Assembly (NCBI GenBank): GCA_903832855.1
Contig: CAILDB010000014.1
Location: 64,144 to 128,143 of the forward strand
Length of the DNA: 64,000 nucleotides
Direction of reading: 5' to 3'
Origin: an uncultured bacterium
Lineage (GTDB): Bacteria > Patescibacteriota > Minisyncoccia > Phycocordibacterales > GWA1-40-21
Shown: positions 14,678 to 43,400 of the stretch, in pieces
Numbering within the stretch: the first letter of the stretch is position 1
Layout: the number at the start of each line of letters is the position of its first letter
Position numbers and translations under genes: made by a program
Notes under the pieces: model-generated
Told to the model about the DNA's origin: nothing
Seen by the model: only the letters and a program-made list of their open reading frames with translations
Databases searched by the model: none

Positions 14678-15223
14678 ATGGCAAAACAAAGTATAGAAGA
14701 AGGACGAAATTGGTACGCTATTCACACCTACGCTGGGTATGAAAATGCTGTTGCCAGAAATCTAAAACAAAGAATTGAATCCTTAAACATGCAGGACAAG
14801 ATTTTTAACGTGGTTGTTCCTGTGGAAAAAACAATAAAAATTAAAGGTGCAAAAAGGGTAGAGTCAGAAGACAAAATTTATCCAGGGTACATTCTAGTAG
14901 ATATGATGGTTACAGATGATTCTTGGTTTGTTGTCCGAAATACTCCGCGTGTTACGGGGTTTGTCGGCACAGGTGTTCACCCCGTTCCTCTTTCAAAAGC
15001 CGAAGTTGATTTCTTCCTTGGCAATATGAATAGCCAGACAGTCACCCACAATGTAGATGTCGCTGTTGGAGATATCGTAAAGATTGCAGACGGACCATTC
15101 AAAGACCTTGAAGGAAGGATTGATGAAGTGGATGCAGAAAAAGGAAAAGCAAAAGTTATGGTTTTGATGTTTGGAAGAGAAACTTCAGTCGAGCTTGATC
15201 TTTTGCAAATCAGAAAGATGTAA
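14678..15223 (+). CDS. nusG: Transcription antitermination factor NusG
   Basis: NGN domain (WYAIHTYAGYENAV) and KOW motif (VGDIVKIADGPFKDLEGRI). Confidence 0.85.
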   Translation: MAKQSIEEGRNWYAIHTYAGYENAVARNLKQRIESLNMQDKIFNVVVPVEKTIKIKGAKRVESEDKIYPGYILVDMMVTDDSWFVVRNTPRVTGFVGTGVHPVPLSKAEVDFFLGNMNSQTVTHNVDVAVGDIVKIADGPFKDLEGRIDEVDAEKGKAKVMVLMFGRETSVELDLLQIRKM

Positions 15224-15282
15224 GCTTTACTTTATTGAGCTTTTCTGATACTTTAGTCAGGCCTCTAAGCAAATTATTTATC

Positions 15283-15408
15283 CCGTAGTAAATTTCAAAT
15301 CATTTTGTTTTTACAAGGGTTAAGTCAAATAAGTCGAAATTATTATTTTAATTAAGAAATTTCAAAAAGTTATTATAAGTATAAAAACAATTTGAAATTT
15401 TACTATCG
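15283..15408. repeat. 21-bp inverted repeat (atcccgtagtaaatttcaaat / atttgaaattttactatcgggat) bracketing the rplK leader
   Basis: Arms at 15283-15303 and 15386-15408; same CCCGTAGTAA family as the terminator hairpins. Confidence 0.5.
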
Positions 15409-15410
15409 GG

Positions 15411-15833
15411 ATGGCAAAGAAAATAACAAAAAAATTAAAACTTCAAATTCCCGCAGGGAAGGCGACACCAGCTCCACCTATTGGTCCAGCTCTTGGACAG
15501 GCAGGTATTAACATTGGTGATTTCGTCAATAAATTTAACACTGCAAGTAAAGACAGAATAGGAGATATTCTCCCGGTTATTATCACCGTTTATGAAGACA
15601 GAACATATGACTTCGTCCTAAAACAGCCACCAACAGCCAGCATGATTCTAAAGGCTTTAGGCATTGAAAAGGGCTCAGGTAAGCCAAATACAAGCAAAGT
15701 CGGAGTTCTCACAAAAGCCCAAGTCAAAGCCATTGCAGAGAAGAAAATGGTAGATATGAATGCCGTGGACATTGCCGGTGCAATGAAAATGGTAGAAGGT
15801 GCAGCAAGATCAATGGGGATAGATGTGAAGTAA
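15411..15833 (+). CDS. rplK: 50S ribosomal protein L11
   Basis: [22 protein letters not shown] motif. Confidence 0.9.
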
Positions 15834-15948
15834 GAAACATCTATCGGCCGGAGGTTGACGAACCGAGGCGTGCCCAGGCAACTTTTTAGCAAAAAAGTAT
15901 GCGTGGGTGGATGTCAAATAAGGCTTAAAACAAATTACAAACAAAAAA

Positions 15949-15968
15949 CCGCCTCACGGCGGTTTTTT
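15949..15968. terminator. Bidirectional intrinsic terminator
   Basis: aaaaaaccgcc-tcac-ggcggtttttt. Confidence 0.6.
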
Positions 15969-16001
15969 GTTGAAAATAATGTATAATTACAAGAACATAA
16001 A

Positions 16002-16598
16002 ATGAAAAAGGAAAAAACTTTATTAATAATCAAACCGGATGGTGTAGAGAGATCTCTTATCGGCCAGATAATAAAAAGACACGAAAGGGTTGGATTGAAA
16101 CTCGTGGCGTTGAAATTTCTCGTTCCCACTGTAGAAATGATAGAGAGTCATTACACAGTAGATCCGGAATGGCTTAGGAAAGTCGGTCAAAAAACAATTG
16201 ACGGCTACAGAGCAAAAAATATTTTGCCTCCTTCGGAAGATCCTGTAGAAAACGGTAAAAATGTTTTGAGACGACTCACAAAATATATGAAAAGCGGACC
16301 GGTCGTCGCAATGGTTTGGCAGGGGGCCCACTCTGTGGGGATTGTTAGAAAAATTGTTGGTGGAACAGAACCGCTTAATTCAGATGTCGGAACTATTAGG
16401 GGAGATTTTGTTACGGACTCGTACATAATTTCTGGAGCCGATGACAGGGCGGTAAGAAATGTTGTTCATGCATCAGGTTCTGTAGAAGAAGCAGAAAAAG
16501 AAATTAAGTTATGGTTTGGTTCGAAAGAAATTTTAAATTATCGTTTGATACAAGAAGAGGTTCTATATGATGTAAATTTGGATGGAATTTTGGAATAA
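16002..16598 (+). CDS. ndk: Nucleoside diphosphate kinase (with C-terminal extension)
   Basis: LLIIKPDGVERSLIG and NVVHASGSVEEAEKEI motifs. Confidence 0.85.
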   Translation: MKKEKTLLIIKPDGVERSLIGQIIKRHERVGLKLVALKFLVPTVEMIESHYTVDPEWLRKVGQKTIDGYRAKNILPPSEDPVENGKNVLRRLTKYMKSGPVVAMVWQGAHSVGIVRKIVGGTEPLNSDVGTIRGDFVTDSYIISGADDRAVRNVVHASGSVEEAEKEIKLWFGSKEILNYRLIQEEVLYDVNLDGILE

Positions 16599-16683
16599 AG
16601 TTTTTTATGATTCTTGACTTAGCTTTGACATCTGATAGTCTTTTCTCTAGAGAGTCGTTGTAACAAATAGAGAGGAGCTAGAG

Positions 16684-17250
16684 ATGAGAACTGCATTGTC
16701 GATCTGTGCTTTGCCTGGTGGTCACTTACCTGAACGAAAAACGCGCGGGGCAATAGGTTATGACACCTACCTTCGCGCTGTTGTATCTGCGACTGAAATG
16801 GATCCAACAAATCCAAATCTTCGCAAGACACTTTTTGACTTCGTGCACATACCGACGGATGAGACTGTTCGGCACGTTTTCACGAACGCTGATGGTAAGC
16901 ATGTTTACAGGATGGATCCGCACGAGTCGGTTCTCGTGGGTATTGGTTTCGTAACTCAGATGGTTTTCCCGATGTTTTATTGGGTAGCACCGAGAAGTGG
17001 TCTCGCCTCAAAGTGGGGCATTACGGTCACCAATGCTCCAGGCACGGTTGATCCTGATTATCGAGGCGAAGCAGGGGTCCTTGTGTACAATCGTAATAAG
17101 ACAACCTTTGATCTGGAGCACAACATGCGGATTGCCCAGATTATCTTTCAGATGGCGCTGATTCCAAGGTTCAAGGTGGTCAAGAAGGTTACTAACCTTG
17201 GACAAACCCATCGTGGAGTCGGGGGTTTTGGTTCAACGGGTTTGAGATGA
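16684..17250 (+). CDS. dut: dUTP diphosphatase (trimeric dUTPase)
   Basis: AIGYD and VDPDYRGE motifs; noticeably GC-richer than flanking genes. Confidence 0.7.
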   Translation: MRTALSICALPGGHLPERKTRGAIGYDTYLRAVVSATEMDPTNPNLRKTLFDFVHIPTDETVRHVFTNADGKHVYRMDPHESVLVGIGFVTQMVFPMFYWVAPRSGLASKWGITVTNAPGTVDPDYRGEAGVLVYNRNKTTFDLEHNMRIAQIIFQMALIPRFKVVKKVTNLGQTHRGVGGFGSTGLR

Positions 17251-17259
17251 TCTTTCCCG

Positions 17260-17292
17260 GCCTGCAGAGTACGGAACTCTGCAGGCTTTTTT
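17260..17292 (+). terminator. Intrinsic terminator after dut
   Basis: gcctgcagag-tacggaa-ctctgcaggc + ttttttg. Confidence 0.7.
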
Positions 17293-17326
17293 GTATATTT
17301 TAATTTTAAAGAGTATAATTTAGTTT

Positions 17327-17824
17327 ATGGAAAAAGAAAACAAAAATGATAGACCAAGCTGGGATCAATATTTTATTGATATAATGCATATCGTTGGTGA
17401 GAGAGGAACCTGTGATCGTGGTAAATCCGGATGCGTTCTTGTTAAAGACAAAAGAATTATTTCCACTGGTTATGTGGGTGCTCCGGCAGGATGTAAACAC
17501 TGCGATGAATCCGGTCATGAAATGCACACTGTGATTCAGGAAGATGGTACACAATCGAAACATTGCATAAGAACAACCCATGCTGAACAGAATGCAATCG
17601 TTCAGGCTGCTAGATTTGGTATTCCAACTAACGGATCAACTATGTATTCCAAAATGACGCCATGCTATGCTTGTGCCAAAATGATTATTAATTCTGGTAT
17701 TAAGCGAGTCGTGTCTGAAGGTGATTATCATGCAGGTTCTCGTAGTAAAGAAATTTTTAAAGAAGCTGGGGTTGAGTTTGTTTTACTAAATGATGTCATG
17801 ACGACTTATGCGAATATGAAATAA
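17327..17824 (+). CDS. dCMP deaminase (cytidine/deoxycytidylate deaminase family)
   Basis: HAEQNAI and PCYACAKMIINSGIKRV zinc-binding motifs. Confidence 0.8.
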   Translation: MEKENKNDRPSWDQYFIDIMHIVGERGTCDRGKSGCVLVKDKRIISTGYVGAPAGCKHCDESGHEMHTVIQEDGTQSKHCIRTTHAEQNAIVQAARFGIPTNGSTMYSKMTPCYACAKMIINSGIKRVVSEGDYHAGSRSKEIFKEAGVEFVLLNDVMTTYANMK

Positions 17825-17826
17825 TT

Positions 17827-18378
17827 ATGAGAAATATTTTAGCATTAGTTGGATTGCCGGGATCTGGAAAAACAGAAGCGATAAACCATCTCATGGAGAA
17901 GTATAAATGGCCAAAGGTTTACTTTGGTGATGTCACTTTTGATGAGATGAAAGTGCGCAATCTTGAAATAAATGAAAAAAATGAGAGATTTGTCAGAGAA
18001 GATTTGAGAATTAAATTTGGTCAATTGCATTACGCAAAAAAAGTTATTGAAAAAATTAAAGCTATGCAAGACCAGAATATTTTGGTTGAAAGTCTTTATA
18101 GCTGGGAAGAATATTTGGAATTTATAAAAGAATTCGGGGATGAATTTAGGGTCTTGGCTGTCTATTCTTCGCCAAATAAACGCATTGAAAGATTGGCAAA
18201 TCGTCCACATCGTCCATTAACAAGGGAAGAGGTTATTTCTAGGGATTATTCACAAATAGAGAATCTTCATCAAGCTGGCCCTATCGCTAGGGCTGATTTT
18301 ACTGTTATAAATGAAAGTTCAAAAGAAGATTTGCTTATTCAAATAGATAAAGTGATTGATCAACTCAAAATAAAATAA
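17827..18378 (+). CDS. P-loop NTPase, putative nucleoside/nucleotide kinase
   Basis: Walker A LVGLPGSGKTE; sits inside the dNTP-metabolism cluster. Confidence 0.45.
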   Translation: MRNILALVGLPGSGKTEAINHLMEKYKWPKVYFGDVTFDEMKVRNLEINEKNERFVREDLRIKFGQLHYAKKVIEKIKAMQDQNILVESLYSWEEYLEFIKEFGDEFRVLAVYSSPNKRIERLANRPHRPLTREEVISRDYSQIENLHQAGPIARADFTVINESSKEDLLIQIDKVIDQLKIK

Positions 18379-18446
18379 TTGCTATTAGCTTTTTTATCTG
18401 GTATCTTTTAAATAGAGATCTTTAACTCAAACAAAAAGGAAAATAA

Positions 18447-19073
18447 ATGAAAAAAGGATTGTTTATAGTAGTGGATAGTGGAGAGGGTGCTGGAAAGACT
18501 TCGCAACTTAATCGTGCGAAAGAAACCTACGGCGATTCTTTGGTTTTGACTCGTGAGCCGGGTGGTTCGCCTTACGCTGAGGAGATTCGGGCTTTGATTT
18601 TGAAATCTCCGAATGCCAGTCAGGCTGATGCTAAGACTTTGTTTGCGCTTTTTTGGGCGGCGAGGGCAGATCATTTGAAGAATACCGTTTTACCGGCTTT
18701 GAAAGCAGGTAAGACGGTGATCACTGACCGCTTCGATTCGTCTACTTTCGCTTATCAGATTATCGCTCAAGGTGCCACAGAGCTGAAAGACTTTTTCTGG
18801 CAAATGCGCGACTTCTATTTGGGCGATCTTAAACCGGATTTGTATATCTACTTTGATATTGATCCGGTTGTCGGTCTTGCCCGTAAACACAAACAGGGTG
18901 GGGAAGAATTGAACCATTTTGAGGCACGACAGATTGATTTTCATAATCGTCTGCGTGAAGGTTTTAAAGAGTTCATTGCCCACGTTCCACACGAAGTAAT
19001 TGACGCAAGTCAGCCGATGGAAAAGGTCTGGGAGGATTTCCATGCTGTCTTGGAGAAGTCTTTTGCGAAGTAA
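18447..19073 (+). CDS. tmk: Thymidylate kinase
   Basis: FIVVDSGEGAGKTSQ P-loop and LTREPGGSP motif. Confidence 0.85.
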   Translation: MKKGLFIVVDSGEGAGKTSQLNRAKETYGDSLVLTREPGGSPYAEEIRALILKSPNASQADAKTLFALFWAARADHLKNTVLPALKAGKTVITDRFDSSTFAYQIIAQGATELKDFFWQMRDFYLGDLKPDLYIYFDIDPVVGLARKHKQGGEELNHFEARQIDFHNRLREGFKEFIAHVPHEVIDASQPMEKVWEDFHAVLEKSFAK

Positions 19074-19128
19074 CTTCGCAAAAGAAAATGGCATCCACGT
19101 GGATGCCATTTTTGTTGCCCGAGATTTC

Positions 19129-19626
19129 TCATCTTCGGACGAACTCTTGAAAAGTAAAGGCACATGAATTCCTGTCGTCTTTGTCGTGGTGTTCTGATGA
19201 TACCAGATTCCAGTCTTCTTTTTCAAAAGCCGGAAAGAAAGCATCACCTTCACATTCGGTAGAGACTTCAGTAATATAAAGTTTGTTTGCTATTGGTAGG
19301 AACTGTTTGTAGATTTCACTTCCTCCGATAACAAAAACCTCCTCTGTGGCGTTTGAAAACATTTTGATTGCTTCATCAACAGATTGGACCACTACACAGC
19401 CGGGAGCGCTGAAATCACTTTGTGAAGTGATAACCACGTTTTTTCTGTCTGGAAGCCCGTGTCCCAATCTTTTGACTATGGATTCATAGGTTTTTCTGCC
19501 CATAATTACTGTGTGACTTTTGGTGATCTTGGCAAAATGCTTCAGATCATCAGGAAGTTTCCACGGAATATCTCCTCCTTTTCCAATCACACTATTTTTG
19601 GCTTTTGCCACAATTATAGATATCAT
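19129..19626 (-). CDS. folA: Dihydrofolate reductase
   Basis: MISIIVAKAKNSVIGKGGDIPWKLPDDLKHF and IMGRKTYES motifs. Confidence 0.85.
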   Translation of the reverse strand: MISIIVAKAKNSVIGKGGDIPWKLPDDLKHFAKITKSHTVIMGRKTYESIVKRLGHGLPDRKNVVITSQSDFSAPGCVVVQSVDEAIKMFSNATEEVFVIGGSEIYKQFLPIANKLYITEVSTECEGDAFFPAFEKEDWNLVSSEHHDKDDRNSCAFTFQEFVRR

Positions 19627-19640
19627 TTTTCCTTTCTTGG

Positions 19641-20468
19641 TTAAACAATCATTTCGGCTTTGATTGACGGATGATGTTCGTAATCAACGAGCTTGATATC
19701 GTCCATCGTGAACTTGTCAAGGTCCTTGACATCTGGATTGAGCCAGAGTTTTGGGAGCTTCATTGGTTCACGAGAGAGCTGTTCTTTCACTGCATCAAAA
19801 TGCTCGTGATAGATGTGAGCGTCATTGAGTGTAATGACAAACTCATGAGGTGTCATACCGACTACCTGCGCCACCATTGCGAGTAGCAGAGCATAGGAAG
19901 CGATGTTGAAGGGAACTCCCAAGAACATATCGCAACTACGCTGTGTCATATGCAAAGACAACTTTCCGTTCGCAGCAAAGAATTGACAGATCATATGACA
20001 AGGTGGCAAAGCCATCTCATCAAGTTCACCAGGATTCCATGCTGTGACGACAAGTCGTCTGTCATTTGGATCAGCTTTCAGTTTGTTTATCAGATTTGCA
20101 ATTTGGTCCACTTCCGTGCCGTTAGGTTTTCTCCAATGCCTCCATTGGACACCATATACACGACCGAGATCGCCTGGAAATTTTGCTTTTGGCTTCCAGT
20201 AAGGAGCCTCGGCATTGTCTGTCCAGATGGTGTGGTCTTTGCCCATGATTTCTTTCAGGCGTGCATCACTGTCGCTACCTTCCAGAAACCATAGCAATTC
20301 GCCCTTAACTCCATTGAATGCCAGTTGCTTGGTAGTTACGGCTGGAAAGCCTTCTTCCAAATTGAAACGCATTTGAATCGCAAAGCACGCTCTCGTCACG
20401 GCATTTCTGCCTTTACGATCAACGCCTTCGCTCAAAATCTTTTTCAAAACATCATTATATATTTTCAT
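19641..20468 (-). CDS. thyA: Thymidylate synthase (ThyA)
   Basis: LAFNGVKGELLWFL and active-site PPCH motifs; cotranscribed with folA. Confidence 0.9.
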   Translation of the reverse strand: MKIYNDVLKKILSEGVDRKGRNAVTRACFAIQMRFNLEEGFPAVTTKQLAFNGVKGELLWFLEGSDSDARLKEIMGKDHTIWTDNAEAPYWKPKAKFPGDLGRVYGVQWRHWRKPNGTEVDQIANLINKLKADPNDRRLVVTAWNPGELDEMALPPCHMICQFFAANGKLSLHMTQRSCDMFLGVPFNIASYALLLAMVAQVVGMTPHEFVITLNDAHIYHEHFDAVKEQLSREPMKLPKLWLNPDVKDLDKFTMDDIKLVDYEHHPSIKAEMIV

Positions 20469-20579
20469 ATGTTTACCTTTCTTTGTTTGTTAAAGACCAT
20501 TTGGTCTATGTTTATAATATCTCTTATTTAATAAAAAACAAGCTTGTTATTAGACCAAATTTAATTTAATATTAATCAT

Positions 20580-21842
20580 ATGAAAGATAAACAAATTGAG
20601 AAACTGATAAAAGCAGAAGAAGCGAGGCAGAAAAAAACGATTTCGCTGATTGCTTCGGAAAATTATGTCTCGGATGATGTGCTCAAAGCACTTGGTTCAA
20701 AATTTACAAATAAATATTCGGAAGGTTATCCTGGAAAAAGATATTATAAAGGCCAGACTTACACAGATCAGGTAGAAGAACTTTGCAGAGAGAGGGCGTT
20801 AAAACTTTTTAAACTTTCTCCTGAAAAATGGGCAGTAAATGTTCAGCCACTTTCTGGTTCACCGGCAAATCTTGCTGTGTATGTAGCTCTGGTGCCTGCC
20901 GGTGGAAAAGTAATGGGAATGTCTCTTGATCATGGAGGGCACCTCACTCACGGGCACAAAGTTTCTGCGACAGGGAAATATTGGATGCAGGTGCCTTATG
21001 GAGTAAATAAAAATACGGAAGTTTTGGATTATGATGAATTAAAAAAACTTGCGATTGCCGAAAAACCAGCGATGATAATTGCCGGTTACACTGCATATCC
21101 TAGAATTGTAGATTTCAAAAAATTCAGAGAAATTGCAAATGCGTGTGGCCCCATTAGAACTGACGGGGCAAGCCCTACTTCTAACGGGGCAAGAGCAATA
21201 CTTATGGTAGATATGTCGCATTTTGCCGGACTTGTGGCGGGTGGAGCGTATCCGTCACCATTTGAATATGCAGATGTCGTGACGACCACGGTGCACAAAA
21301 CTTTGCGTGGTCCAAGAAGTGCTTTAATTTTTTCAAGAAAAGATAAAACAAAAACAAGTGTAAAAGGAAATGAAATAAGTTTTTCTGAACTCATAGACAA
21401 AGCTGTTTTCCCAGGACTTCAGGGCGGTCCACATATGAATCAAATTGCTGCCGTAGCTGTGGCTCTGAAAGAAGCGAGTACACCGGCATTTAAAAAATAT
21501 GCAAAACAAGTAATTAAAAATGCAAAAGTTCTTTCTGATGAGCTCAAAAAACTTGGTTGGAAAATTATTTCCGGCGGAACGGATAGTCACCTCATTTTGA
21601 TGGATACTTTTATGAATGGCAAAGGCATGAGCGGAGCTGAGGCGAGCGACAAGCTTGAAAAAGAAGGAATTATCGTAAACAAAAACACTATTCCAAATGA
21701 AACCAGAAGCCCTGTGGATCCTTCAGGAATTCGTCTAGGCACAGCCGGCGAGACGACTCGTGGTGCAAAAGAAAAAGATATGATAAAATTAGCAAAGAGA
21801 ATAGATGGGGTTCTTTTTAGGAAAGGAGGTGATAAATTTTGA
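20580..21842 (+). CDS. glyA: Serine hydroxymethyltransferase
   Basis: PLP lysine region VTTTVHKTLRGPR; carries a ~15-aa GC-rich in-frame insertion (CGPIRTDGASPTSNG). Confidence 0.9.
   Translation: MKDKQIEKLIKAEEARQKKTISLIASENYVSDDVLKALGSKFTNKYSEGYPGKRYYKGQTYTDQVEELCRERALKLFKLSPEKWAVNVQPLSGSPANLAVYVALVPAGGKVMGMSLDHGGHLTHGHKVSATGKYWMQVPYGVNKNTEVLDYDELKKLAIAEKPAMIIAGYTAYPRIVDFKKFREIANACGPIRTDGASPTSNGARAILMVDMSHFAGLVAGGAYPSPFEYADVVTTTVHKTLRGPRSALIFSRKDKTKTSVKGNEISFSELIDKAVFPGLQGGPHMNQIAAVAVALKEASTPAFKKYAKQVIKNAKVLSDELKKLGWKIISGGTDSHLILMDTFMNGKGMSGAEASDKLEKEGIIVNKNTIPNETRSPVDPSGIRLGTAGETTRGAKEKDMIKLAKRIDGVLFRKGGDKF
21144..21195 (+). repeat. GC-rich ~50-nt in-frame insertion in glyA with direct repeat acggggcaag x2
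   Basis: gcgtgtggccccattagaactgacggggcaagccctacttctaacggggcaaga replaces the short conserved loop of SHMT. Confidence 0.4.
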
Positions 21843-21875
21843 TTAGAGTACATCTACCGCAAACAAGGAGATGGT

Positions 21876-22064
21876 ATGAGACCAGAATGGAATTTGGTAG
21901 GCCAAAAAGCAGATGGTTCGGGACTCAACATTTTTTCTTGTTTCAATTGCGAAAGGAGGTGCATGGTCGAAGTTTCTACTTCTAAACACAATGGTTCATG
22001 CATACCGGACCCGGTGGAAAGGGAATTTAGTCGGTTTCAGAGAAAGGAATATGCTGTCTTTTAA
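21876..22064 (+). CDS. Small Cys-containing hypothetical protein
   Basis: Good SD (aaggag) 7 nt upstream; followed by terminator hairpin 22127-22148 + T-run. Confidence 0.3.
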   Translation: MRPEWNLVGQKADGSGLNIFSCFNCERRCMVEVSTSKHNGSCIPDPVEREFSRFQRKEYAVF

Positions 22065-22254
22065 CCCACCACCGCAAGGGAGGGGGTGATCCATATCTCG
22101 CGTGAGATGCACGCGTAGATGCTCTCCCCCCACTGTAAAAGGTGGGGGACTTTTTTATCCGAGTATTAACCCAGTGCATAAATTGACAAATTTTTTCATA
22201 AGCATAAGATATAAATAGATTTGAGTTCTCAATAAAAATGGAAAGGAGCGCAAT

Positions 22255-22491
22255 ATGCGAGAAGGTGTTTTGTTTAAATGTACCGGGAATCTGGATGCAC
22301 ATAAATGTAACGATAGGAAATGCCCCCACAGGAAGGCGCATGTTCCTGGATATGATTGTGGCAACTCGTCGTGCAACAGTGCTAGTCATGTTTGCACAAT
22401 ACCGGGAGTTAAACTGCCTTTTGAGCCAACCGTAGAAAACGGTGGCTTGGTCTCGTGCATTTCAATCGGAGGGAAATGTGATTTCCCATAA
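22255..22491 (+). CDS. Cys-rich small protein (10 Cys), novel HKC..RKCPHR domain
   Basis: SD ggaaaggag upstream and terminator 22493-22535 downstream; homologous to the C-terminal 70 aa of the 41902-42639 DUF1566 protein. Confidence 0.5.
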   Translation: MREGVLFKCTGNLDAHKCNDRKCPHRKAHVPGYDCGNSSCNSASHVCTIPGVKLPFEPTVENGGLVSCISIGGKCDFP

Positions 22492-22544
22492 ATGACTCTG
22501 GCACACTCAGGTGTGCCGAGTCATTTTTTTTTGCAAAGAAAAAA

Positions 22545-22575: not shown

Positions 22576-23646
22576 CTATCCCTCAACCAACTCCTTCATT
22601 AGCTCGGCGACGGAAATGATTTTTTTGATACGATAAGCATTACTGCCGACCGTAAACATTGGAGGTTCACTTGGGGCCATACCTACGGCCGCCCTGAGTG
22701 CATCACAGATACAGAAGTAATCCTTGTTTAAGGGATTATTGGGAGCAGCTTTGCAGACCGTGTATCTGCCTTCGCTGTCTTTTCCCAAAACATAACCCAT
22801 CCTACATTTCGGATGACGCGTCCCTTGACACATTTCCAAATATGCAGGAGAGCCCCTCAGTATCCGAAAAGGGAAACCACAAGGTGAACTTGGCACCACT
22901 ATGATGTCCTCTTCTGTTGAACTAACAATTTGCTGTTTGAATTCCTCCGTTGCTGAACTTTCAAAAGTGGCTAGAAATCTCGTCGCCATTTGGACACCAC
23001 TTGCCCCCATTTCTAGGAACCTTATGATGTCTTCATGAGTATATATTCCACCAGCCACAATGACTGGGATATTTCCATTTTCCGAAGCCACCTTCAGAAC
23101 TTCCGGCAAGATGTTTTCCAGAGCAAACTCCGGTTTGTAGACATCTTCCAGATGAAAACCCAAATGTCCTCCAGCCATCGGACCTTCTAGAACCACTGCG
23201 TCTGGCCGATGTCGCCAGCGTCGCAGAATTATGTTTAAGGTTCGAGCCGAAGAGGCAATGAGTATCTGAGCTGTATCTCCAGAGTCGGCGATTAGTTTGG
23301 GAACACCCGCTCCCAAAAAGACCGCAGTAACCTTGGCATCTATCGCAGCTCGGATTGTTTCGTCGTAACTCTCGTCGAGAATTCGCATTATGTTGATGCC
23401 GACGAGATAGCCGTCTGCCATCGCGGTTTCAATTTCTTCTCTGACCGCTTCGTAGGTAGTGTACGGCTTTTTGTTTCTCAAAGCGTAAAGGTCTTTCAAC
23501 CCTGCGCTTGAAAGAACGCCGAGACCACCTGTGCGGAAGACCGCTCTCGTCAGCGGGGTTCCAGACACCCCGGCACCCATTCCACCTTGTATGATGCAAT
23601 AGGGCAGTTCAAAATTCTTGATTCTCAATCCAGGAATCGTGTTCAT
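22576..23646 (-). CDS. FMN-dependent nitronate monooxygenase / FabK-like (NPD family) with Cys-rich C-terminal extension
   Basis: IIQGGMGAGVS and VLEGPMAGGHLGF motifs; GC-richer than genome. Confidence 0.65.
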   Translation of the reverse strand: MNTIPGLRIKNFELPYCIIQGGMGAGVSGTPLTRAVFRTGGLGVLSSAGLKDLYALRNKKPYTTYEAVREEIETAMADGYLVGINIMRILDESYDETIRAAIDAKVTAVFLGAGVPKLIADSGDTAQILIASSARTLNIILRRWRHRPDAVVLEGPMAGGHLGFHLEDVYKPEFALENILPEVLKVASENGNIPVIVAGGIYTHEDIIRFLEMGASGVQMATRFLATFESSATEEFKQQIVSSTEEDIIVVPSSPCGFPFRILRGSPAYLEMCQGTRHPKCRMGYVLGKDSEGRYTVCKAAPNNPLNKDYFCICDALRAAVGMAPSEPPMFTVGSNAYRIKKIISVAELMKELVEG

Positions 23647-23827: not shown

Positions 23828-26800
23828 GTGAAACGCCAAAATTGTTCTTTTTATATCGCGGGCTTATTTTTTTTGTCTTTTTTTATACTTTTTTCTCCAT
23901 TAAATAATGTTTTTGCAGAAACTGAACTCCACGCTGGAGATGACGGACTTTATCATATCTCCACAGACACAACTTGGACAAAATCTGCTGGGCCTTATGT
24001 TATTTATAACGATGTATCAGTGGATAGTGGATCTATTTTGACTATTGAAGCAGGAACTGAAATTAAGCTCGCGGCTGGTGTTTACATTAATGTTCTTGGA
24101 AAATTGATTGCAAACGGGACGGAAAGTGAAAAAGTTTCTTTCACATCTTTAGATAGTGCTTTACCGTGGGGAGCGGTTTATGCCCTTAACGGAGGAAGCT
24201 ACGAAGTACACAATGCCGATGTATCTTATGCAGACAGCGCTTTTGGTGCTTATCATGGAAATGGTTCTCTAGATTCGGTTAGTGTTCATGACTGTAAGTA
24301 TGGTCTAGACATTACCGATGGTAATTTTGATGTAAAAAATAGCTCTTTTACAAATATGTCTCGTATTGTCGCGGATATTTACGACAATAGCCATCTCTCA
24401 TTCACATCTTCTAGTATAGAAAATCCGGGAAGGAGAGTATTTAGAGTAACTCACGGAAGCACATTAAATCTTTCTGATTTAAGTTTGGATGATGCTCACG
24501 GTGACCAAGTGTTTGAAGTTTACAGGGAAAGCTCTGTGAACGTTGATAATTTATCTGTCAAAAATTTTTACGGATATTCTGTCGCAGAAGTTTATCAAAA
24601 CAGTTTGATAAGTATTACAAATTCAACGATAGAAGATTCAACGACAGGATGGGGAGACGTGATTGAAATTTTTGACAGCAGTCATCTTACTCTCACGAAT
24701 TCTACGATAAAAAATACAATAGGGTGGTCTGCGATAAATGTCGGTGATTGCAGAGATAATTCTAGTTCAACTGTGGACATATCAGATTCGGTGATAGATG
24801 GGGGAACAGAAATGGGGGTGGCACTCATCTGTTCTGTGACGGCAAATATATCAAATACAAAAATTACAAATTTTTTGACTGCTGGGGTGGAATCTCTTAG
24901 TAATCCGGTTATAAGAATTTCGAATAGTGAAATTTCGGGGAATGATAGGGGAATAGAAAGTTATGGTGGGGATGTTGAGATCACAGACAGTATTATTAAA
25001 GATAATTTATCATACGGGATTTATAATTTAGCTTCGTATTATGATTCTTACTATGAGATTTGGGTAGAAAAATTGCCAATAAAAGCCGATGGAAACTGGT
25101 GGGGGGATAAGAGCGGGCCGTTTAATGCAACATTAAACGGCCCCGGCCTCGCAAACCCAGTATCTTCCAACGTTGAATTCTCCCCCTGGCTCAAAAGCGA
25201 CCCAAAAATAAAAAAGAAAAATCCCGTAATAATTATCCCTGGAATTATGGGCACACATATCTCGCAAAATTATGGCGACAACGAAGAACTTTGGCCGAAT
25301 GTTGGTAAACTCCTCGGTTCTTTTACGGATGAATTTTTGAATGATCTCTCATTCAACACTGACGGGACAGAAAACGCCGATTTCCCAATGACTATCGGGG
25401 ATATTGTGCGGAAAGTGGAGCTTGCAGGGCAGACCGTTACAGATACATTTGACGGATTGATTTCGACTTTGATTGCGGACGGATATACCGAAGGCACCGA
25501 CCTTTTTGTTTTTCCGTATGACTGGAGGAAAAGCGATTCTGATGATGCAGTACTTTTGAAAAGTAAAATTGATGAAGTACTCGCGCAGACAGGCGGAAGT
25601 AAGGTGGATATCATCGCTCACTCAATGGGAGGACTCATAGCCTCAAAATATGTTGCCGATAATACTGCAGAAAAAGTTGATAAATTAATTTTCATCGGCA
25701 CACCGCATCTTGGCGCACCGAAGGCATTTAAGGCACTGATGTATGGGGATGATATGGGGATAAAACTTGGAAGTTTGAGCTTTCTTCACCCTCCTGAATT
25801 AAAAAAGATCTCTCAAAATTTTCCTTCCGTTTTTGATTTATTACCAAGCCAAGCATATTCATACAAATATATTTACGATATGACGGCAACTACCAGCAAA
25901 TGGTTGGACTATGACGAGGTAAAAAATTTTATCATCAATCACGGCGGAAACGAATCCCTTTTTTCACAAGCAGAAAGTTTGCACGCAAGCACGGATACTT
26001 TTGATCTATCAGGAGCAGATGTCTACAACTTTTCCGGTTGTGGCACGACCAAAACTATTGGCAGTATGACCGTAAAAAAGAAAAAATCTTGGACATCTCT
26101 CGGCCAAAAGCTTGTAGATGACTATAGTATTGATTATGTAAACGGCGATGAGACAGTTCCTCTTGTCTCCGCAGTCGGCCCGTTTGGTGATCGCAATTAT
26201 TATGTAAAAGGTTTTAAACATTCAGAGCTTCCATCTGCAGACGGCGTTCCTGAAACTATTTTTTCTATTTTGTCTGGCGTCAGTGCCACTACGACATCAA
26301 ATATTTCCAAAAGTGATTTATTTTGTGACATTCCCGGACAAGTTGTCTCCACCCACAGTCCCGTCACATTGGATATTTACGATGACCTAGGCAATCACAC
26401 TGGCCCAGTGGATGGGGGAGATATTGAATATGGAATAGAGGGTGTAAGCTATGACATTGTTGGCACATCTGCTTTTGCATTTCTCCCAGAAGGCAGAAGT
26501 TACAGAATAGTCATTCACGCTACCGACATTGGTGCATATGATTTTTACATTACAAAGCTCGGCACAGGTGGAGGCACAGTGAGCGAAGCGTATTGGAATG
26601 AAATTCCTCTCACAACTTTGTCTACAAATTCAGAAATAAATATTTCTTCTACAAGCACCGAATATGTAATAGAAACAGACCAAGAGGGTGATGGAATTTT
26701 TGAATCAACAACCACTCCTTCATCTATACTTTCTGCCACAACGAGCGAGGATTTAATTTCTCCACAATCCACAAGCACTGTTTCAAATGGTATTGTTTCA

Positions 26801-27373
26801 CTTTCTGCCGTAGACGACAATTCTGGTATTCTAAAAATAGAATATTCTTTTGACGGAAATACTTGGAATTTATACACAAAACCATTTTCTGCATATGGCA
26901 AAACTGTCAGTTATTTTGCAACCGACAATGCCGGAAATATTGAATCATTTCAAACTATTACCATACCCAATTTGGAAGTTGCTATCTCATCTGGTGGAGG
27001 TGGTGGTCCAATAATTCAAATTCCTATCCCCTCTGTCCCTTCTGTCATTCCCGTGCAGACGGGAATCCAGTCTCCTTCCTCTTCATCTCCCTCTGTTCTC
27101 TCTGTCATTCCCGTGACCCACCCCGTGAAATCTGATTTGTATTTCACTGGGGACACGGGAATCCAGTCTTCCTCTTCTCTGTCATCCCGACGCAGGTCGG
27201 GATCCATCCCCTCTGTTGTTCATTCTGTCTTTGCGAGGAGCTCTGCGACGAAGCAATCTACTCCGATCCTCACCGCCTCCGTCATAGACTCCAGAATAAA
27301 TATCCCCTCAATAATCACAACCTTCTTCCACAATCTCTGGTCCCACATATTTTCATTCTTTAAACACTTGTGA
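23828..27373 (+). CDS. Large secreted protein: signal peptide, parallel beta-helix domain, LCAT-like alpha/beta-hydrolase (lipase/phospholipase), Ig-like domains, repeat-encoded C-terminal tail
   Basis: GTG start; signal peptide; hydrolase hallmarks PVIIIPGIMGT, FPYDWRKS (YDWR motif), GxSxG IIAHSMGG and FIGTPHLGAP; C-terminus read through the family-1/2 repeat array. Confidence 0.7.
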   Translation: MKRQNCSFYIAGLFFLSFFILFSPLNNVFAETELHAGDDGLYHISTDTTWTKSAGPYVIYNDVSVDSGSILTIEAGTEIKLAAGVYINVLGKLIANGTESEKVSFTSLDSALPWGAVYALNGGSYEVHNADVSYADSAFGAYHGNGSLDSVSVHDCKYGLDITDGNFDVKNSSFTNMSRIVADIYDNSHLSFTSSSIENPGRRVFRVTHGSTLNLSDLSLDDAHGDQVFEVYRESSVNVDNLSVKNFYGYSVAEVYQNSLISITNSTIEDSTTGWGDVIEIFDSSHLTLTNSTIKNTIGWSAINVGDCRDNSSSTVDISDSVIDGGTEMGVALICSVTANISNTKITNFLTAGVESLSNPVIRISNSEISGNDRGIESYGGDVEITDSIIKDNLSYGIYNLASYYDSYYEIWVEKLPIKADGNWWGDKSGPFNATLNGPGLANPVSSNVEFSPWLKSDPKIKKKNPVIIIPGIMGTHISQNYGDNEELWPNVGKLLGSFTDEFLNDLSFNTDGTENADFPMTIGDIVRKVELAGQTVTDTFDGLISTLIADGYTEGTDLFVFPYDWRKSDSDDAVLLKSKIDEVLAQTGGSKVDIIAHSMGGLIASKYVADNTAEKVDKLIFIGTPHLGAPKAFKALMYGDDMGIKLGSLSFLHPPELKKISQNFPSVFDLLPSQAYSYKYIYDMTATTSKWLDYDEVKNFIINHGGNESLFSQAESLHASTDTFDLSGADVYNFSGCGTTKTIGSMTVKKKKSWTSLGQKLVDDYSIDYVNGDETVPLVSAVGPFGDRNYYVKGFKHSELPSADGVPETIFSILSGVSATTTSNISKSDLFCDIPGQVVSTHSPVTLDIYDDLGNHTGPVDGGDIEYGIEGVSYDIVGTSAFAFLPEGRSYRIVIHATDIGAYDFYITKLGTGGGTVSEAYWNEIPLTTLSTNSEINISSTSTEYVIETDQEGDGIFESTTTPSSILSATTSEDLISPQSTSTVSNGIVSLSAVDDNSGILKIEYSFDGNTWNLYTKPFSAYGKTVSYFATDNAGNIESFQTITIPNLEVAISSGGGGGPIIQIPIPSVPSVIPVQTGIQSPSSSSPSVLSVIPVTHPVKSDLYFTGDTGIQSSSSLSSRRRSGSIPSVVHSVFARSSATKQSTPILTASVIDSRINIPSIITTFFHNLWSHIFSFFKHL
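27027..27270 (+). repeat. Tandem array of three family-1 units plus a partial family-2 unit forming the 3' end of the 23828 gene
   Basis: Units at 27044-27068, 27104-27164 (with nested ccccgtgaaat hairpin) and 27181-27205; gtctttgcgagg...gaagcaatc at 27227-27269. Confidence 0.75.
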
Positions 27374-40305: not shown

Positions 40306-41733
40306 ATGGTTCAAAAAGCCCCAAAATCGGTTAAAAAGCCTAAACAAGACAAAGGCCCCAAGCTGACATACGATGTGGTGGTGATAGGTGGTGGGCCTGC
40401 AGGGCTTATGTCCGCTTGCATTTCTGCTGAAAACGGAGCAAAAGTCCTTCTACTAGAGAAGAACGAAGAAATGGGTAAAAAGCTTCTAATTTCCGGTGGT
40501 GGCAGATGTAACATCACAAATGCTGATCCAGACAAAAGAAAATTTGTTTCAAAGTTTGGTAAAAAGGGTGACCTTTTATTTAGTCCTCTTTCTGTCTTTG
40601 GTGTGCAGGATACGATTCAGTTTTTTAATAATTTAGGAGTGAAAACAAAAGTTGAAGCTGGTTTTCGTGTGTTTCCTGAGAGTGATAATTCTTCTGATGT
40701 TCTTGAAGCTTTCGTGCAAAAGGCAAAAAAAGTTGGAGTGGAATTTAAAACTTCTGCGGAGGTTATGGGATTTAAGACATTGTCACTCCCGTCTTTGCGA
40801 GGGTCTTCCCGAAGCAATCCAGATTCCGATTCTTTAGATTGCTTCGCTTCACTCGCAAAGACAGAGGAGATGGATTCCGGCCTTCGCCGGAATGACAGAA
40901 AAGAGGAAGGAAACGACAGAGGGAAAATCTCTGCAGTAATTTTGAAAAATGGGGAAGAAGTAGTTGGAAAGAAATTTATTTTGGCGACTGGCGGAATGTC
41001 ACACCCAGAAACTGGCTCTACCGGTGATGGTTTCAAATGGCTTACTGAAATTGGTCACAAAGTTGCAAAACCAAATCCTTCTCTTGTGCCAATTAAAATT
41101 TCTGAGTCGTGGATTGGCGATTTTTCTGGAATTACTTTGGAAAATGTTGGAATTTCAATCTGGCAAAATGGCACGAAAAGTATAAATAAAAAAGGCAGAG
41201 TTCTTTTTACACACAACGGACTTTCCGGCCCGATGATTTTGAATATGAGCAAAGATATTGGCGACCTTTTACAATACGGCGAAGTGAAAGTCGCAATAGA
41301 TTTTTATTCCGGAGTCGGACTTGATGAAATGCACGAGAATTTCAATAAACTATTCAAAGAGCATTCAAATAAAAAAATAAAAAATCTTGTTTTGCCGGAA
41401 GTCCCAGCAAAAATATTTGAAAAAATTCTTGAACTTCTTGAAATTGACGGAGAAATAGAAATGCACTCAATTTTCAGGGAGGAAAGATTTTCTCTGATAG
41501 AAAAATTAAAAAAGTTTGAGCTCACGGTCGGCGGACTATTGGGCTTTGATAAGGCGATAATCTCAAGTGGTGGACTGGACCTTTCTGAAGTTGATTTTAA
41601 AACAATGGGTTCCAAGCTTTACAATAATTTATTTTTTGCCGGTGACATTTTGGATTTCGATAGACCTTCTGGAGGATTTTCTTTGCAGTTATGCTGGACC
41701 ACAGGTTATATTGCTGGTAAGAACATCAAATAG
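40306..41733 (+). CDS. NAD(P)/FAD-dependent oxidoreductase, HI0933/YhiN (BaiN-like) family, with ~45-aa in-frame repeat insertion
   Basis: YDVVVIGGGPAGLMSA...LISGGGRCNITN; insertion LSLPSLRGSSRSNPDSDSLDCFASLAKTEEMDSGLRRNDRKEE encoded by family-2 + family-1 repeats. Confidence 0.75.
   Translation: MVQKAPKSVKKPKQDKGPKLTYDVVVIGGGPAGLMSACISAENGAKVLLLEKNEEMGKKLLISGGGRCNITNADPDKRKFVSKFGKKGDLLFSPLSVFGVQDTIQFFNNLGVKTKVEAGFRVFPESDNSSDVLEAFVQKAKKVGVEFKTSAEVMGFKTLSLPSLRGSSRSNPDSDSLDCFASLAKTEEMDSGLRRNDRKEEGNDRGKISAVILKNGEEVVGKKFILATGGMSHPETGSTGDGFKWLTEIGHKVAKPNPSLVPIKISESWIGDFSGITLENVGISIWQNGTKSINKKGRVLFTHNGLSGPMILNMSKDIGDLLQYGEVKVAIDFYSGVGLDEMHENFNKLFKEHSNKKIKNLVLPEVPAKIFEKILELLEIDGEIEMHSIFREERFSLIEKLKKFELTVGGLLGFDKAIISSGGLDLSEVDFKTMGSKLYNNLFFAGDILDFDRPSGGFSLQLCWTTGYIAGKNIK
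40791..40868 (+). repeat. Family-2 palindromic element, in-frame in flavoprotein gene
   Basis: gtctttgcgag-ggtcttccc-gaagcaatc-cagattccgattctttag-gattgcttc-gcttcact-ctcgcaaagac-agag; nested inverted repeats. Confidence 0.8.
40872..40898 (-). repeat. Family-1 palindromic unit, in-frame in flavoprotein gene, immediately after the family-2 element
   Basis: ggattccggccttcgccggaatgacag. Confidence 0.8.
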
Positions 41734-41901: not shown

Positions 41902-42639
41902 GTGTCAGATAATGGGGCGTTACGGAAAGGCAAAATGAGTGCAAGAAAATGGGATTGGGCTGTCGTGGGTAAGGCGTGGTCTGTCTTGAATCAGATCACG
42001 AACAAGTTCCGTCAGTTGATAGAAAAAACTGACTGTGGCATTGACTGGGCATTTCTGGAGTGGCTAGCGACAAAGGCACCTGAGAAGCTTTACTCAGATT
42101 TGTTGGGTAATGCCATAAACGCTTGGCAGGCTTCAATGTCGGCGAAACGAATTCAGGAGCGGGCAAGCATGCTCGAATTTACAATGAGTCAATGCCTAGC
42201 CACACAAGCTCAAGCGGAGGAGTGGTGTAGTAATCGTTTCGGTGGTCGATGGAGAATTGCGTCGTTTACTGATCTCGCAAGATTACGCCAACAAGGATTT
42301 GATATTCCTAGTGGTGTCTTCTGGAATAAAGAAAATGGTGGGTTGATAGGCTCTGTTTGTTATACTGGACAGAGATTCGTGGTGGTTAACATACCGAAAG
42401 ATGCTAAATGTTACACGATTTGTGTTCGTGAAAAATTGTTTACTTGTTCTGGAGATTCTTTTTTTCACAAATGCGAAGGAAGAAAGTGCCCACATCGTCT
42501 GCCTCATACTGAGCTTGATAATTGTACGAAAAGGATTCTCAATAATGAGCGCGGTTGGTGCAGCGCACCAGGTACGAAATCCATGATTAATCAAGGAGAG
42601 GAAGACGGGGCTTTGGTCACTTGTGTACCGGTGAAATAG
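41902..42639 (+). CDS. Cytoplasmic DUF1566 (Lcl C-terminal-like) domain protein with C-terminal Cys-rich HKC..RKCPHR domain
   Basis: WRIASFTDLARL...VRE (DUF1566); C-terminal 70 aa homologous to the 22255 ORF; no signal peptide. Confidence 0.55.
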   Translation: MSDNGALRKGKMSARKWDWAVVGKAWSVLNQITNKFRQLIEKTDCGIDWAFLEWLATKAPEKLYSDLLGNAINAWQASMSAKRIQERASMLEFTMSQCLATQAQAEEWCSNRFGGRWRIASFTDLARLRQQGFDIPSGVFWNKENGGLIGSVCYTGQRFVVVNIPKDAKCYTICVREKLFTCSGDSFFHKCEGRKCPHRLPHTELDNCTKRILNNERGWCSAPGTKSMINQGEEDGALVTCVPVK

Positions 42640-42797: not shown

Positions 42798-43322
42798 ATG
42801 GCGGACGGCGACAATACAAAGGAAGAGGAGAAACTGACCATGAGTAAAAACATGCTCGGTGTGGCGCTCTGCGAAGTACGCGGACTGCTGAATCAGTTGA
42901 TGGAAAATCTCTGCGGTAAAGATTGGGAAAAGTGGCTTGAAGCCCTCAAAACCTTTCTTCGTGGAGAGCCGACTTTTGCTGAGGAGATGATTTATCCTCC
43001 GCTTAGGTGGAGTACCGACCTAGGGGAAATTCCTCGAGTCAATCTTTTGTCCCAAACTTCGTCATACTGTCGACAATTTGGAGAGGGATGGAGATTACCA
43101 ACAGAAAAAGAACTCGCCAGAGCCATGAAAAATACGGAGCTGGCTAATGAATTTGCTCTTTTAAAATATTATTGGACTTCAACATCTCATTCAGATGCTG
43201 ACAAAAAGATGACAGTCTTATATCGCCATCAAGACGAAGGCGTTAGTTATTCTAGAGAAGATTGGCTTGGTAATCAGAAGAATCCATATCTGCGGTTGTG
43301 TCGTACGAGGGAGTTTGCTTGA
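42798..43322 (+). CDS. Cytoplasmic DUF1566 domain protein (paralog of 41902)
   Basis: GEGWRLPTEKELARAM...YWTSTS...LRLCRTRE; shares the N-terminal LNQL..DW..WLE segment with 41902. Confidence 0.55.
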   Translation: MADGDNTKEEEKLTMSKNMLGVALCEVRGLLNQLMENLCGKDWEKWLEALKTFLRGEPTFAEEMIYPPLRWSTDLGEIPRVNLLSQTSSYCRQFGEGWRLPTEKELARAMKNTELANEFALLKYYWTSTSHSDADKKMTVLYRHQDEGVSYSREDWLGNQKNPYLRLCRTREFA

Positions 43323-43400
43323 TTGAAGAAGGGCGTCTTTTTCCCGAAGGGAAAAAGACGCCTGTTTTTTTGGGAAAAAAAATGATATTATGAATAAAAT

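Follow-up and report, generated by a model that had tools for sequence, protein, structure and literature searches.

Small Cys/His metal-binding modules are already familiar, and several of them resemble the domain described here in part. The AN1, CHORD and DM domains are eukaryotic two-zinc Cys6His2 modules of about 40–65 residues, which serve as protein- or DNA-interaction domains and all contain CxxC-type pairs. The zinc fingers of the CCCH (tristetraprolin) type follow the spacing C-x7-8-C-x4-5-C-x3-H. Finally, in zinc finger 3 (ZF3) of Shiftless (SHFL/C19orf66), the ligands H203, C205, C210 and C223 make up an HCCC "short zinc-binding loop" (PMC12716391).

The window, i.e., the whole stretch of 64,000 nucleotides that was analysed, encodes two copies of a domain that has six Cys and two His as its main conservation, as do AN1, CHORD and DM, but that is set apart from them, going by their general descriptions, by the spacing and order of its ligands and by the lack of CxxC; Pfam, which is expected to hold models for all three, returned no match for the tested members at E ≤ 10. 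The likeness to CCCH fingers lies in the spacing C9-x8-C18-x4-C23 (numbering of the 78-aa protein throughout, unless stated otherwise), in the basic context and in the His residues that come after, whereas these His stand 2 and 6 positions past the third Cys instead of 4, three more Cys are conserved, and the Pfam zf-CCCH model does not match the tested members. With Shiftless ZF3, the domain shares a set of close ligands ([H]-x-C-x4-C), a fourth Cys 11–12 residues further on, the lack of CxxC and little regular secondary structure. In contrast, C9, H25, C47 and C68 are four further ligands without equivalent in ZF3, the His of ZF3 is not conserved in the family, and Shiftless is a vertebrate protein of 291 aa in which a helical bundle is combined with two zinc ribbons. 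What is new here is that the family is uncatalogued and that its ligands are arranged, unusually, without knuckles; its occurrence is restricted to uncultured bacteria about which little is known and to phage-like contigs.

A Rare Family with a Cys6His2 Framework

One copy of the domain is encoded by a standalone gene of 78 aa (protein P0001; 22255..22491, forward strand), of which it occupies residues 6–71 (22270..22467, forward strand; BLASTP and family profile), while the other is found at the C-terminus of a larger protein, at residues 179–244 in the 245-aa numbering (42436..42633, forward strand; BLASTP, and 94.6 bits with the family HMM). BLASTP joins the two in one ungapped alignment (25/66 identities, i.e., 38%; E = 3e-15), which bears out the kinship proposed in the initial annotation of this DNA. 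The core H-K-C-x2-R-K-C-P-H-R that it had pointed out is indeed identical in both copies (MAFFT), but the number of conserved Cys has to be lowered from eight to six (C9, C18, C23, C35, C47 and C68), C40 and C75 being private to the standalone copy. When the window was scanned in six frames with the family HMM, exactly two copies were found, and the standalone gene scored 90 bits.

Word-indexed searches with either protein retrieved near-identical sequences only; a protein identical to P0001 is present on 30 contigs. With a profile built from the two copies, HMMER returned 18 sequences from 1.84e9 representative proteins, among which 16 are true members and two are repeat proteins that were rejected as false matches. 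Leaving aside the two copies of the window, 14 further proteins thus carry the same Cys/His framework (E from 2e-15 to 5e-7), and their recovery by a two-copy profile argues against a similarity due to chance or composition. A profile search of a collection of 5.8e9 clusters added seven members, a metagenome scan one new member (a 198-aa protein on a JGI metagenome contig, L017) and scans of viral contigs a single locus (L020), and none of 50,697 GenBank phage records held a relative. In the GTDB representative genomes, the only matches were transposase-like zinc ribbons from Asgard archaea, with which the common part is a C-x4-C-P-H motif of 17–23 residues. Altogether, the family amounts to about two dozen clusters at 90% identity among roughly 15 billion predicted proteins.

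All members are named "hypothetical protein" and none has a Pfam domain. No known family could be assigned to the domain with Pfam (E ≤ 10), NCBIfam, PHROGs or PADLOC; for P0012, these family-library scans yielded coiled-coil noise only. Likewise, no family was assigned when the family profile was run against PDB sequences, Foldseek came back empty, the zinc-ribbon models of Pfam did not match the tested members, and the core motif did not turn up in a search of the literature. The domain is therefore undescribed, as had been suspected. Since it falls into no known zinc-ribbon or knottin family and since the similarity between the two copies is recovered by an alignment tool, the core claim of the initial annotation stands. 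We regard it as firmly shown that these proteins make up a genuine, conserved, very rare and previously uncatalogued family with a Cys6His2 framework.

Five architectures can be distinguished among the members: the standalone domain of 70–78 aa (A); the domain preceded by a charged helix, for a total of about 110 aa (A'); the domain extended at its C-terminus by ~50 residues that are charged and coiled-coil-like, for a total of about 121 aa (B); the fusion protein of the window (C); and the domain with other tails of no known kind (D), as in P0015 and in the 198-aa protein of L017.

Putative Ligands, Predicted Cell Location and Structure

In an alignment of 20 sequences, C9, G11, C18, C23, H25, H29, C35, C47 and P50 are invariant, and R21, K22, R26, G51, T52, S54, G63, V66 and C68 are nearly so. 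The framework reads C-x8-C-x4-C-x-H-x3-H-x5-7-C-x10-13-C-x19-20-C, for a module of about 65 residues, the C-terminal half of which follows the pattern W-C-x2-P-G-T-x-S-x-L-D-G-x2-D-G-x-L-V-x-C. There is no conserved CxxC or CxxH knuckle anywhere in the family alignment, the nearest spacings being C-x4-C and C-x-H. P0011, P0014, P0018, P0022 and P0025 have F or Y in the place of H16, which is therefore not an obligate ligand. Nevertheless, six Cys and two His, all of them invariant or (for C68) nearly invariant, are enough for two tetrahedral metal sites.

The initial annotation had left the choice between a zinc-binding and a disulfide-rich module. A hydropathy scan of 24 family proteins, of the 174-aa protein encoded next to the fusion and of the L017 protein detected nothing that resembles a signal peptide or a membrane-spanning stretch: the highest 19-residue Kyte–Doolittle mean in any scanned member is 1.13, and a hydrophobic core is lacking at the N-terminus. 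Judging from these profiles, the family proteins should be cytoplasmic. With no export or membrane segment, metal ligation is likelier than disulfides, and it is the metal-binding half of the proposal that fits the conserved Cys and His.

The two halves of the domain differ in charge, with a net charge of 0 to +9 for the N-terminal half vs. -5 to +1 for the C-terminal half. The nearly invariant R21, K22 and R26 lie between the ligands of the N-terminal half, which is basic; the other half ranges from neutral to acidic. Across members, the pI ranges from 6.2 to 9.1, most proteins being basic overall.

Structure prediction with AF2, which had been suggested for both proteins, was carried out and led to no fold assignment. 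For the 78-aa protein, the model computed with the 20-sequence alignment is poor (pLDDT 42). The model of the fusion protein reaches an overall pLDDT of 54, and the Cys6His2 domain is its best-predicted part (60–75): despite the weakness of the model, the RKC-x-HR core comes out as a short helix, and beta hairpins follow in the second half. When this model was compared to the PDB with Foldseek, the best match had E = 0.38, and no fold was assigned.

The Standalone Gene and the Fusion Protein

The standalone gene is preceded by a Shine–Dalgarno sequence, GGAAAGGAG (22240..22248, forward strand), with the ATG 6 nt downstream, and is followed by an intrinsic terminator (22499..22528, forward strand, or 22499-22518 with another end point), composed of the hairpin TGGCACAC-TCAG-GTGTGCCG and a T-run. 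Both signals had been anticipated from the first reading of the DNA. Upstream, a consensus scan detected a sigma-70-like promoter, TTGACA-16-TAAGAT (22183..22210, forward strand), with 10/12 matches, as a pattern match only. As this promoter lies downstream of another terminator (22127-22148) and as the gene has a terminator of its own, it apparently forms its own, monocistronic, transcription unit. The 410-bp spacer between glyA and the standalone gene holds no riboswitch or other ncRNA according to Rfam, whether at gathering thresholds over the whole window or at E ≤ 10 for positions 21780-22300, where matches were at chance level only. Neither rRNA nor tRNA genes are present within the window.

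The fusion gene (41935..42639, forward strand) encodes a protein of 234 aa if it starts at the ATG in 41935 or of 245 aa if it starts at the GTG in 41902. The ATG is more probably the true start: a Shine–Dalgarno sequence (GGAAAGG, 41924-41930) is found 4 nt before it, and gene calls favour the 234-aa form (P0002), which is present on 49 contigs. A helical N-terminus, according to the secondary structure of the AF2 model, and a middle part that is possibly DUF1566-like precede the Cys6His2 domain. Directly upstream lies a gene for a HI0933-like FAD protein (40306..41733, forward strand), and downstream a gene for a 174-aa protein (42798..43322, forward strand) that is weakly DUF1566/Lcl_C-like (Pfam) and devoid of the Cys-rich domain. 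The sole terminator-like site downstream of the fusion gene (43331-43363) is located past this 174-aa ORF. The succession of a HI0933-like gene and a fusion gene is also observed in a relative (L024), whose HI0933-like protein is 83% identical to that of the window. The fusion architecture is confined to this organism and to one relative, which is 77% identical.

The fusion had been annotated as a DUF1566 protein, and the presence of this adhesin-type domain had been taken to suggest a binding function. Sequences of the DUF1566/Lcl_C family are recognised by a G-WRLPT-x2-EL motif and by a final vRCVR. The fusion does show a comparable motif, C-x3-FGG-x-WR-I-x-S-x2-DLARL, as well as a C-terminal C-Y-x-I-C-V-R, but Pfam does not detect Lcl_C/DUF1566 (PF07603) in it, either at E ≤ 1 for the whole protein or at E ≤ 10 for residues 77-178 and for P0003. 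Only the 174-aa neighbour, the gene of which is paralogue-like, matches the model, with 23.2 bits (E = 8.7e-5), i.e., below the gathering cut-off of 34.9 bits. The fusion and this neighbour, itself a weak Lcl_C match, are weakly similar by BLASTP over residues 28-127 (E = 0.006), whereas hhalign aligns 24 residues only (FG-x-WR[IL]..[DE]LAR; E = 0.01, probability 4%). Moreover, the pLDDT of the DUF1566-like region of the fusion is 39–57 and Foldseek returned no match for it. The DUF1566 label is thus plausible for the fusion partner on the strength of the motifs, but unproven. As for the adhesin, neither the fusion nor its neighbour has a signal peptide, so that the inference does not follow, and the genes around encode cytoplasmic enzymes.

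Gene Neighbourhoods of the Family

Members of the family recur in clusters of genes that serve to make thymidylate, to keep uracil out of DNA and to process double-strand breaks. In the window, the standalone gene comes after a cluster (14678..21842) in which the Pfam scan identified NusG, L11, NDK, a dUTPase-like protein, a dCMP deaminase, a P-loop protein (AAA_17/AAA_18), thymidylate kinase (Tmk), DHFR and ThyA (both on the reverse strand) and SHMT (on the forward strand). It directly follows SHMT, as in the same gene order of a relative (L006), and the next gene, on the reverse strand, encodes an NMO-type FMN enzyme (22576..23646). More generally, the homologues with architectures A and A' share an SHMT–domain gene(–dUTPase) slot. 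Thus, three loci (L006–L008) show the succession ThyX, DHFR, ThyA, SHMT, domain gene and dUTPase, whereas three others (L009–L011) have dNK/Tmk, ThyX, SHMT, domain gene, dUTPase, NT5C and a HI0933-like gene, the latter lying 1.2 kb from the domain gene in L009. In two further loci (L012 and L013), SHMT, domain gene, dUTPase and MazEF are succeeded by a gene for a beta-helix/LCAT-domain protein, which the window has as well; in L025, the domain gene stands between a truncated upstream ORF and the dUTPase, followed by an NMO gene on the reverse strand.

The dUTPase gene that adjoins the domain gene in these loci has been lost from the window, the dUTPase-like gene of which (16684..17250) is of a different, divergent type. 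Translational coupling between the domain gene and the dUTPase was considered but rejected: the overlaps seen in L012 and L025 are probably due to miscalled starts, a conserved MKLKI start being found ~60 bp past the stop codon of the domain gene. Given that the gene of the window has its own promoter and terminators and that the adjacent dUTPase is lost, a tight coupling of the two is not required.

The organisms that carry this arrangement are close relatives, with SHMT sequences 83–87% identical, ThyA 87.5% and DHFR 66%, so that the synteny with SHMT is essentially one observation, perhaps inherited rather than selected. Between hosts in which SHMT is about 85% identical, however, the domain protein is only 34–47% identical. 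This fast divergence could reflect either a weak constraint or a genetic conflict, rather than a housekeeping function.

Homologues with architecture B occur in an independent context, (SpoVS)–(UDG)–domain gene–(Macro)–SbcD–SbcC, where the bracketed genes are present in some loci only. In three loci (L003–L005), a SpoVS-domain protein, a 61-aa ORF, the domain gene, SbcD (Metallophos), an 85-aa ORF and a large unannotated ORF in the position of SbcC follow each other, and the start and stop codons overlap where the domain gene directly abuts SbcD. The order is domain gene, 67-aa ORF, SbcD, DUF4379 and SbcC in L014, SpoVS, UDG, domain gene, SbcD and a truncated unannotated ORF in L023, and UDG, domain gene, Macro, SbcD and SbcC in L020. 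The latter locus belongs to a 90-kb contig that is viral according to IMG/VR and in which the module is extended by an SSB-like protein, RecA, a primase, a Cas4-like exonuclease and a sigma factor. In a third context, an RNaseH-like gene and other genes (an HTH protein in L021) precede the domain gene, with DUF2828 downstream in L021. Neither this context nor that of the fusion (HI0933-like flavoprotein and ArgRS) is obviously about DNA repair. Taken together, these neighbourhoods make the link of the family with dUTPase, UDG and SbcCD suggestive but unproven.

Possible Functions

The interpretation that we tentatively put forward, with somewhat less than an even chance of being right, is that the domain is a soluble cytoplasmic two-zinc interaction module, which would act in DNA metabolism in an accessory or regulatory capacity. 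Eight candidate ligands (six Cys and two His), a presumably cytoplasmic protein and the lack of Fe-S-like spacing suggest a pair of structural Zn2+ sites, probably of the loop type and devoid of CxxC knuckles. The basic residues interleaved with the ligands, along with the gene neighbourhoods, point to a role in binding, and the most likely partner would be a nucleic acid or an enzyme of DNA metabolism. The protein may then be an accessory or regulatory factor of deoxynucleotide and DNA-repair pathways, the module being used alone or joined to a charged coiled-coil-like helix (at the N- or C-terminus), to a possibly lectin-like domain, or to other tails. Its settings are the thymidylate/dUTPase cluster of one narrow bacterial lineage and the SbcCD-nuclease operon of phage-like elements. 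We infer zinc binding, the number of sites and the role in DNA metabolism from conserved residues and gene order.

The same eight Cys and His could equally ligate an Fe-S cluster, and the presence of a flavoprotein gene next to both copies of the window (NMO in one case, HI0933-like in the other) raises the question of whether the domain is instead an Fe-S or redox-active Cys/His protein that serves flavoenzymes such as ThyX, NMO or the HI0933-like protein, for instance in electron transfer or as a thiol reductant. The HI0933-like gene that precedes the fusion in L024 and that is close to the domain gene in L009, as well as ThyX in the clusters of L006 and L009, would agree with such a role, which we nonetheless hold to be quite unlikely: the members of the SbcCD operons and those of the RNaseH-like context have no flavoprotein neighbour, neither CxxC nor any recognised Fe-S spacing is present, Pfam yields no Fe-S family at E ≤ 10, and the NMO gene of the window is convergent with the standalone gene, with terminators in between. 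The contrast between the divergence of the domain protein and the 83–88% identity of the SHMT and ThyA of the hosts would rather be expected from a fast-evolving factor of phage–host conflict, i.e., an inhibitor of dUTPase, UDG or SbcCD, or a decoy for such an inhibitor, exchanged between the bacterial lineage and its phages. Consistent with this, members exist both in a cellular genome and on an IMG/VR viral contig with a phage-type replication module, the JGI sample numbers of this contig and of one contig with architecture A look consecutive (3300029288 and 3300029286), and the accessory tails are variable. Yet, beyond coiled-coil noise, no PADLOC defence model matches and the GenBank phage records are devoid of relatives. 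Furthermore, known UDG inhibitors are acidic DNA mimics, which the mostly basic members of the family do not resemble, and we consider a conflict factor rather improbable as well.

The remaining two explanations start from a resemblance to described proteins. When the 78-aa protein was compared to the PDB with phmmer, it matched residues 201-260 of human Shiftless (9KBO chain A) at E = 0.0049, with H16, C18, C23 and C35 aligned to the four ZF3 ligands H203, C205, C210 and C223, and hhalign placed them in the same register. At face value, the domain might be a distant bacterial homologue of zinc finger 3 and of the phospho-loop of this RNA-binding inhibitor of ribosomal frameshifting. However, a 16-sequence profile run against the PDB misses Shiftless at E ≤ 10, the hhalign probability is 0.9%, and among 24 members searched with phmmer only P0001 scores (20.3 bits), the other 23 remaining at 4.4 bits or less; P0012 and P0022 have no match to Shiftless. 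Besides, H16 is variable, while nothing in Shiftless corresponds to C9, H25 and C47, which are invariant in the family. Homology with Shiftless is thus extremely improbable and we treat the resemblance as due to chance; at most, it shows the kind of loop-type zinc site that the domain may form. A secreted, disulfide-rich binding or adhesin module is likewise very improbable. It would account for the high Cys content and for the sub-threshold Lcl_C/DUF1566 match of the 174-aa neighbour, the FG-x-WR[IL] motif of which recurs in the fusion. But no member has a segment resembling a signal peptide or a membrane anchor, nor do the fusion and its neighbour; two His are invariant alongside the Cys; the genes nearby encode cytoplasmic enzymes of DNA and nucleotide metabolism; and the assignment of the fusion partner to DUF1566 is not borne out by Pfam.

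To return to the cytoplasmic two-zinc module, a bolder version of it can be formulated, which we deem unlikely. The domain would be a new two-zinc fold and a dedicated accessory for uracil/thymine handling and DNA-end processing, common to an uncultured small-genome bacterial lineage and its phages. It would bind DNA or dock on dUTPase, UDG or SbcCD, and its fusion to coiled-coil or lectin-like parts would provide alternative means of recruitment. As a cofactor or regulator of any of these three, the protein would bring a new component to pathways thought to be fully described; were it simply the structural zinc module of a protein specific to one lineage, the gain would be limited to a minor entry in the domain catalogues. 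In both cases, concrete candidates for binding are available in the fusion partner and in the products of the neighbouring genes.

Gene content of the thymidylate cluster

The window carries a dUTPase-like gene (16684..17250, +), which lies elsewhere in the thymidylate cluster than the standalone Cys6His2-domain gene (X; 22255..22491, +) and whose product shares only 29–40% identity with the dUTPases encoded next to X in relatives (e.g., contig L025, 791..1297; contig L012, 594..1097), against 42–87% when the latter are compared among themselves. Moreover, the gene order is X–dUTPase–NMO(-) in L025 vs. X–NMO(-) in the window, NMO(-) being the FMN-enzyme gene (22576..23646) convergent with X. 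Given this low identity and this difference in gene order, the X-adjacent dUTPase seems to have been lost from the window, while a different gene, of the dUTPase/dCTP-deaminase type, apparently sits elsewhere in its cluster. In the gene calls of L012 and L025, the dUTPase ORF begins within X, but this start looks miscalled, since the conserved one (MKLKI) is found about 60 bp downstream of the X stop codon.

The SHMT of the window (glyA; 20580..21842, +) is 420 aa long vs. 395–402 aa in relatives, at about 85% identity, the alignment length implying an internal insertion and a short C-terminal extension. The glyA–X spacer (21843..22254) is also longer, 410 bp vs. 85–126 bp in relatives L006 and L009, and contains a 62-aa ORF with four Cys (MRPEWNLVGQKADGSGLNIFSCFNCERRCMVEVSTSKHNGSCIPDPVEREFSRFQRKEYAVF; 21876..22064, +), preceded by a Shine–Dalgarno sequence rated as good (AAGGAG, 5 nt upstream of the ATG) and followed on its 3' side by a terminator (22127–22148). 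This ORF is predicted in L002 by one gene caller and is not matched by the X profile, while no Rfam family was found in the spacer.

Just outside the cluster lies a gene for a large, fast-evolving and probably surface-exposed protein of 1181 aa (23828..27373, +), with a hydrophobic N-terminus and Beta_helix and LCAT/lipase-type domains. Its counterpart in L012 (1800..5342; 33% identity) stands beside X–dUTPase–MazEF. The MazE/PemK toxin–antitoxin pair (L012, 1143..1720) is an insertion in this one relative, with the dUTPase on one side and the beta-helix protein on the other, and is absent from the window.

Across the 64-kb window, neither tRNA genes nor Rfam families at the gathering threshold were found. 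Scanning the GTDB species-representative genomes did not recover the KC[NE]xRKCPH motifs of the window, so its organism seems to be missing from that set.

Distribution of the motif and companions of the SbcCD module

ORFs of 443–457 aa, which look transposase-like by inspection only, occur in Promethearchaeota (Asgard) MAG contigs (L015; L016, 690..2021) and in JGI metagenome contigs (L018, L019). Positions 12–34 of the X profile match the second knuckle of their N-terminal zinc ribbon (CPACGS...FQCKDRKCPHLKNH) at about 21 bits, and the rest of the profile has no match in them; what they have in common with X is a short motif and not domain-wide homology.

In group B, where X accompanies SbcD–SbcC, DUF4379 proteins (“probable treble-clef zinc finger”) occur with the module in two phage-like contigs (L020, 6403..7362, with at least three DUF4379 repeats; L014, 2127..3710). 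SpoVS-domain proteins of 242–245 aa are found repeatedly upstream in L003, L020 and L023.
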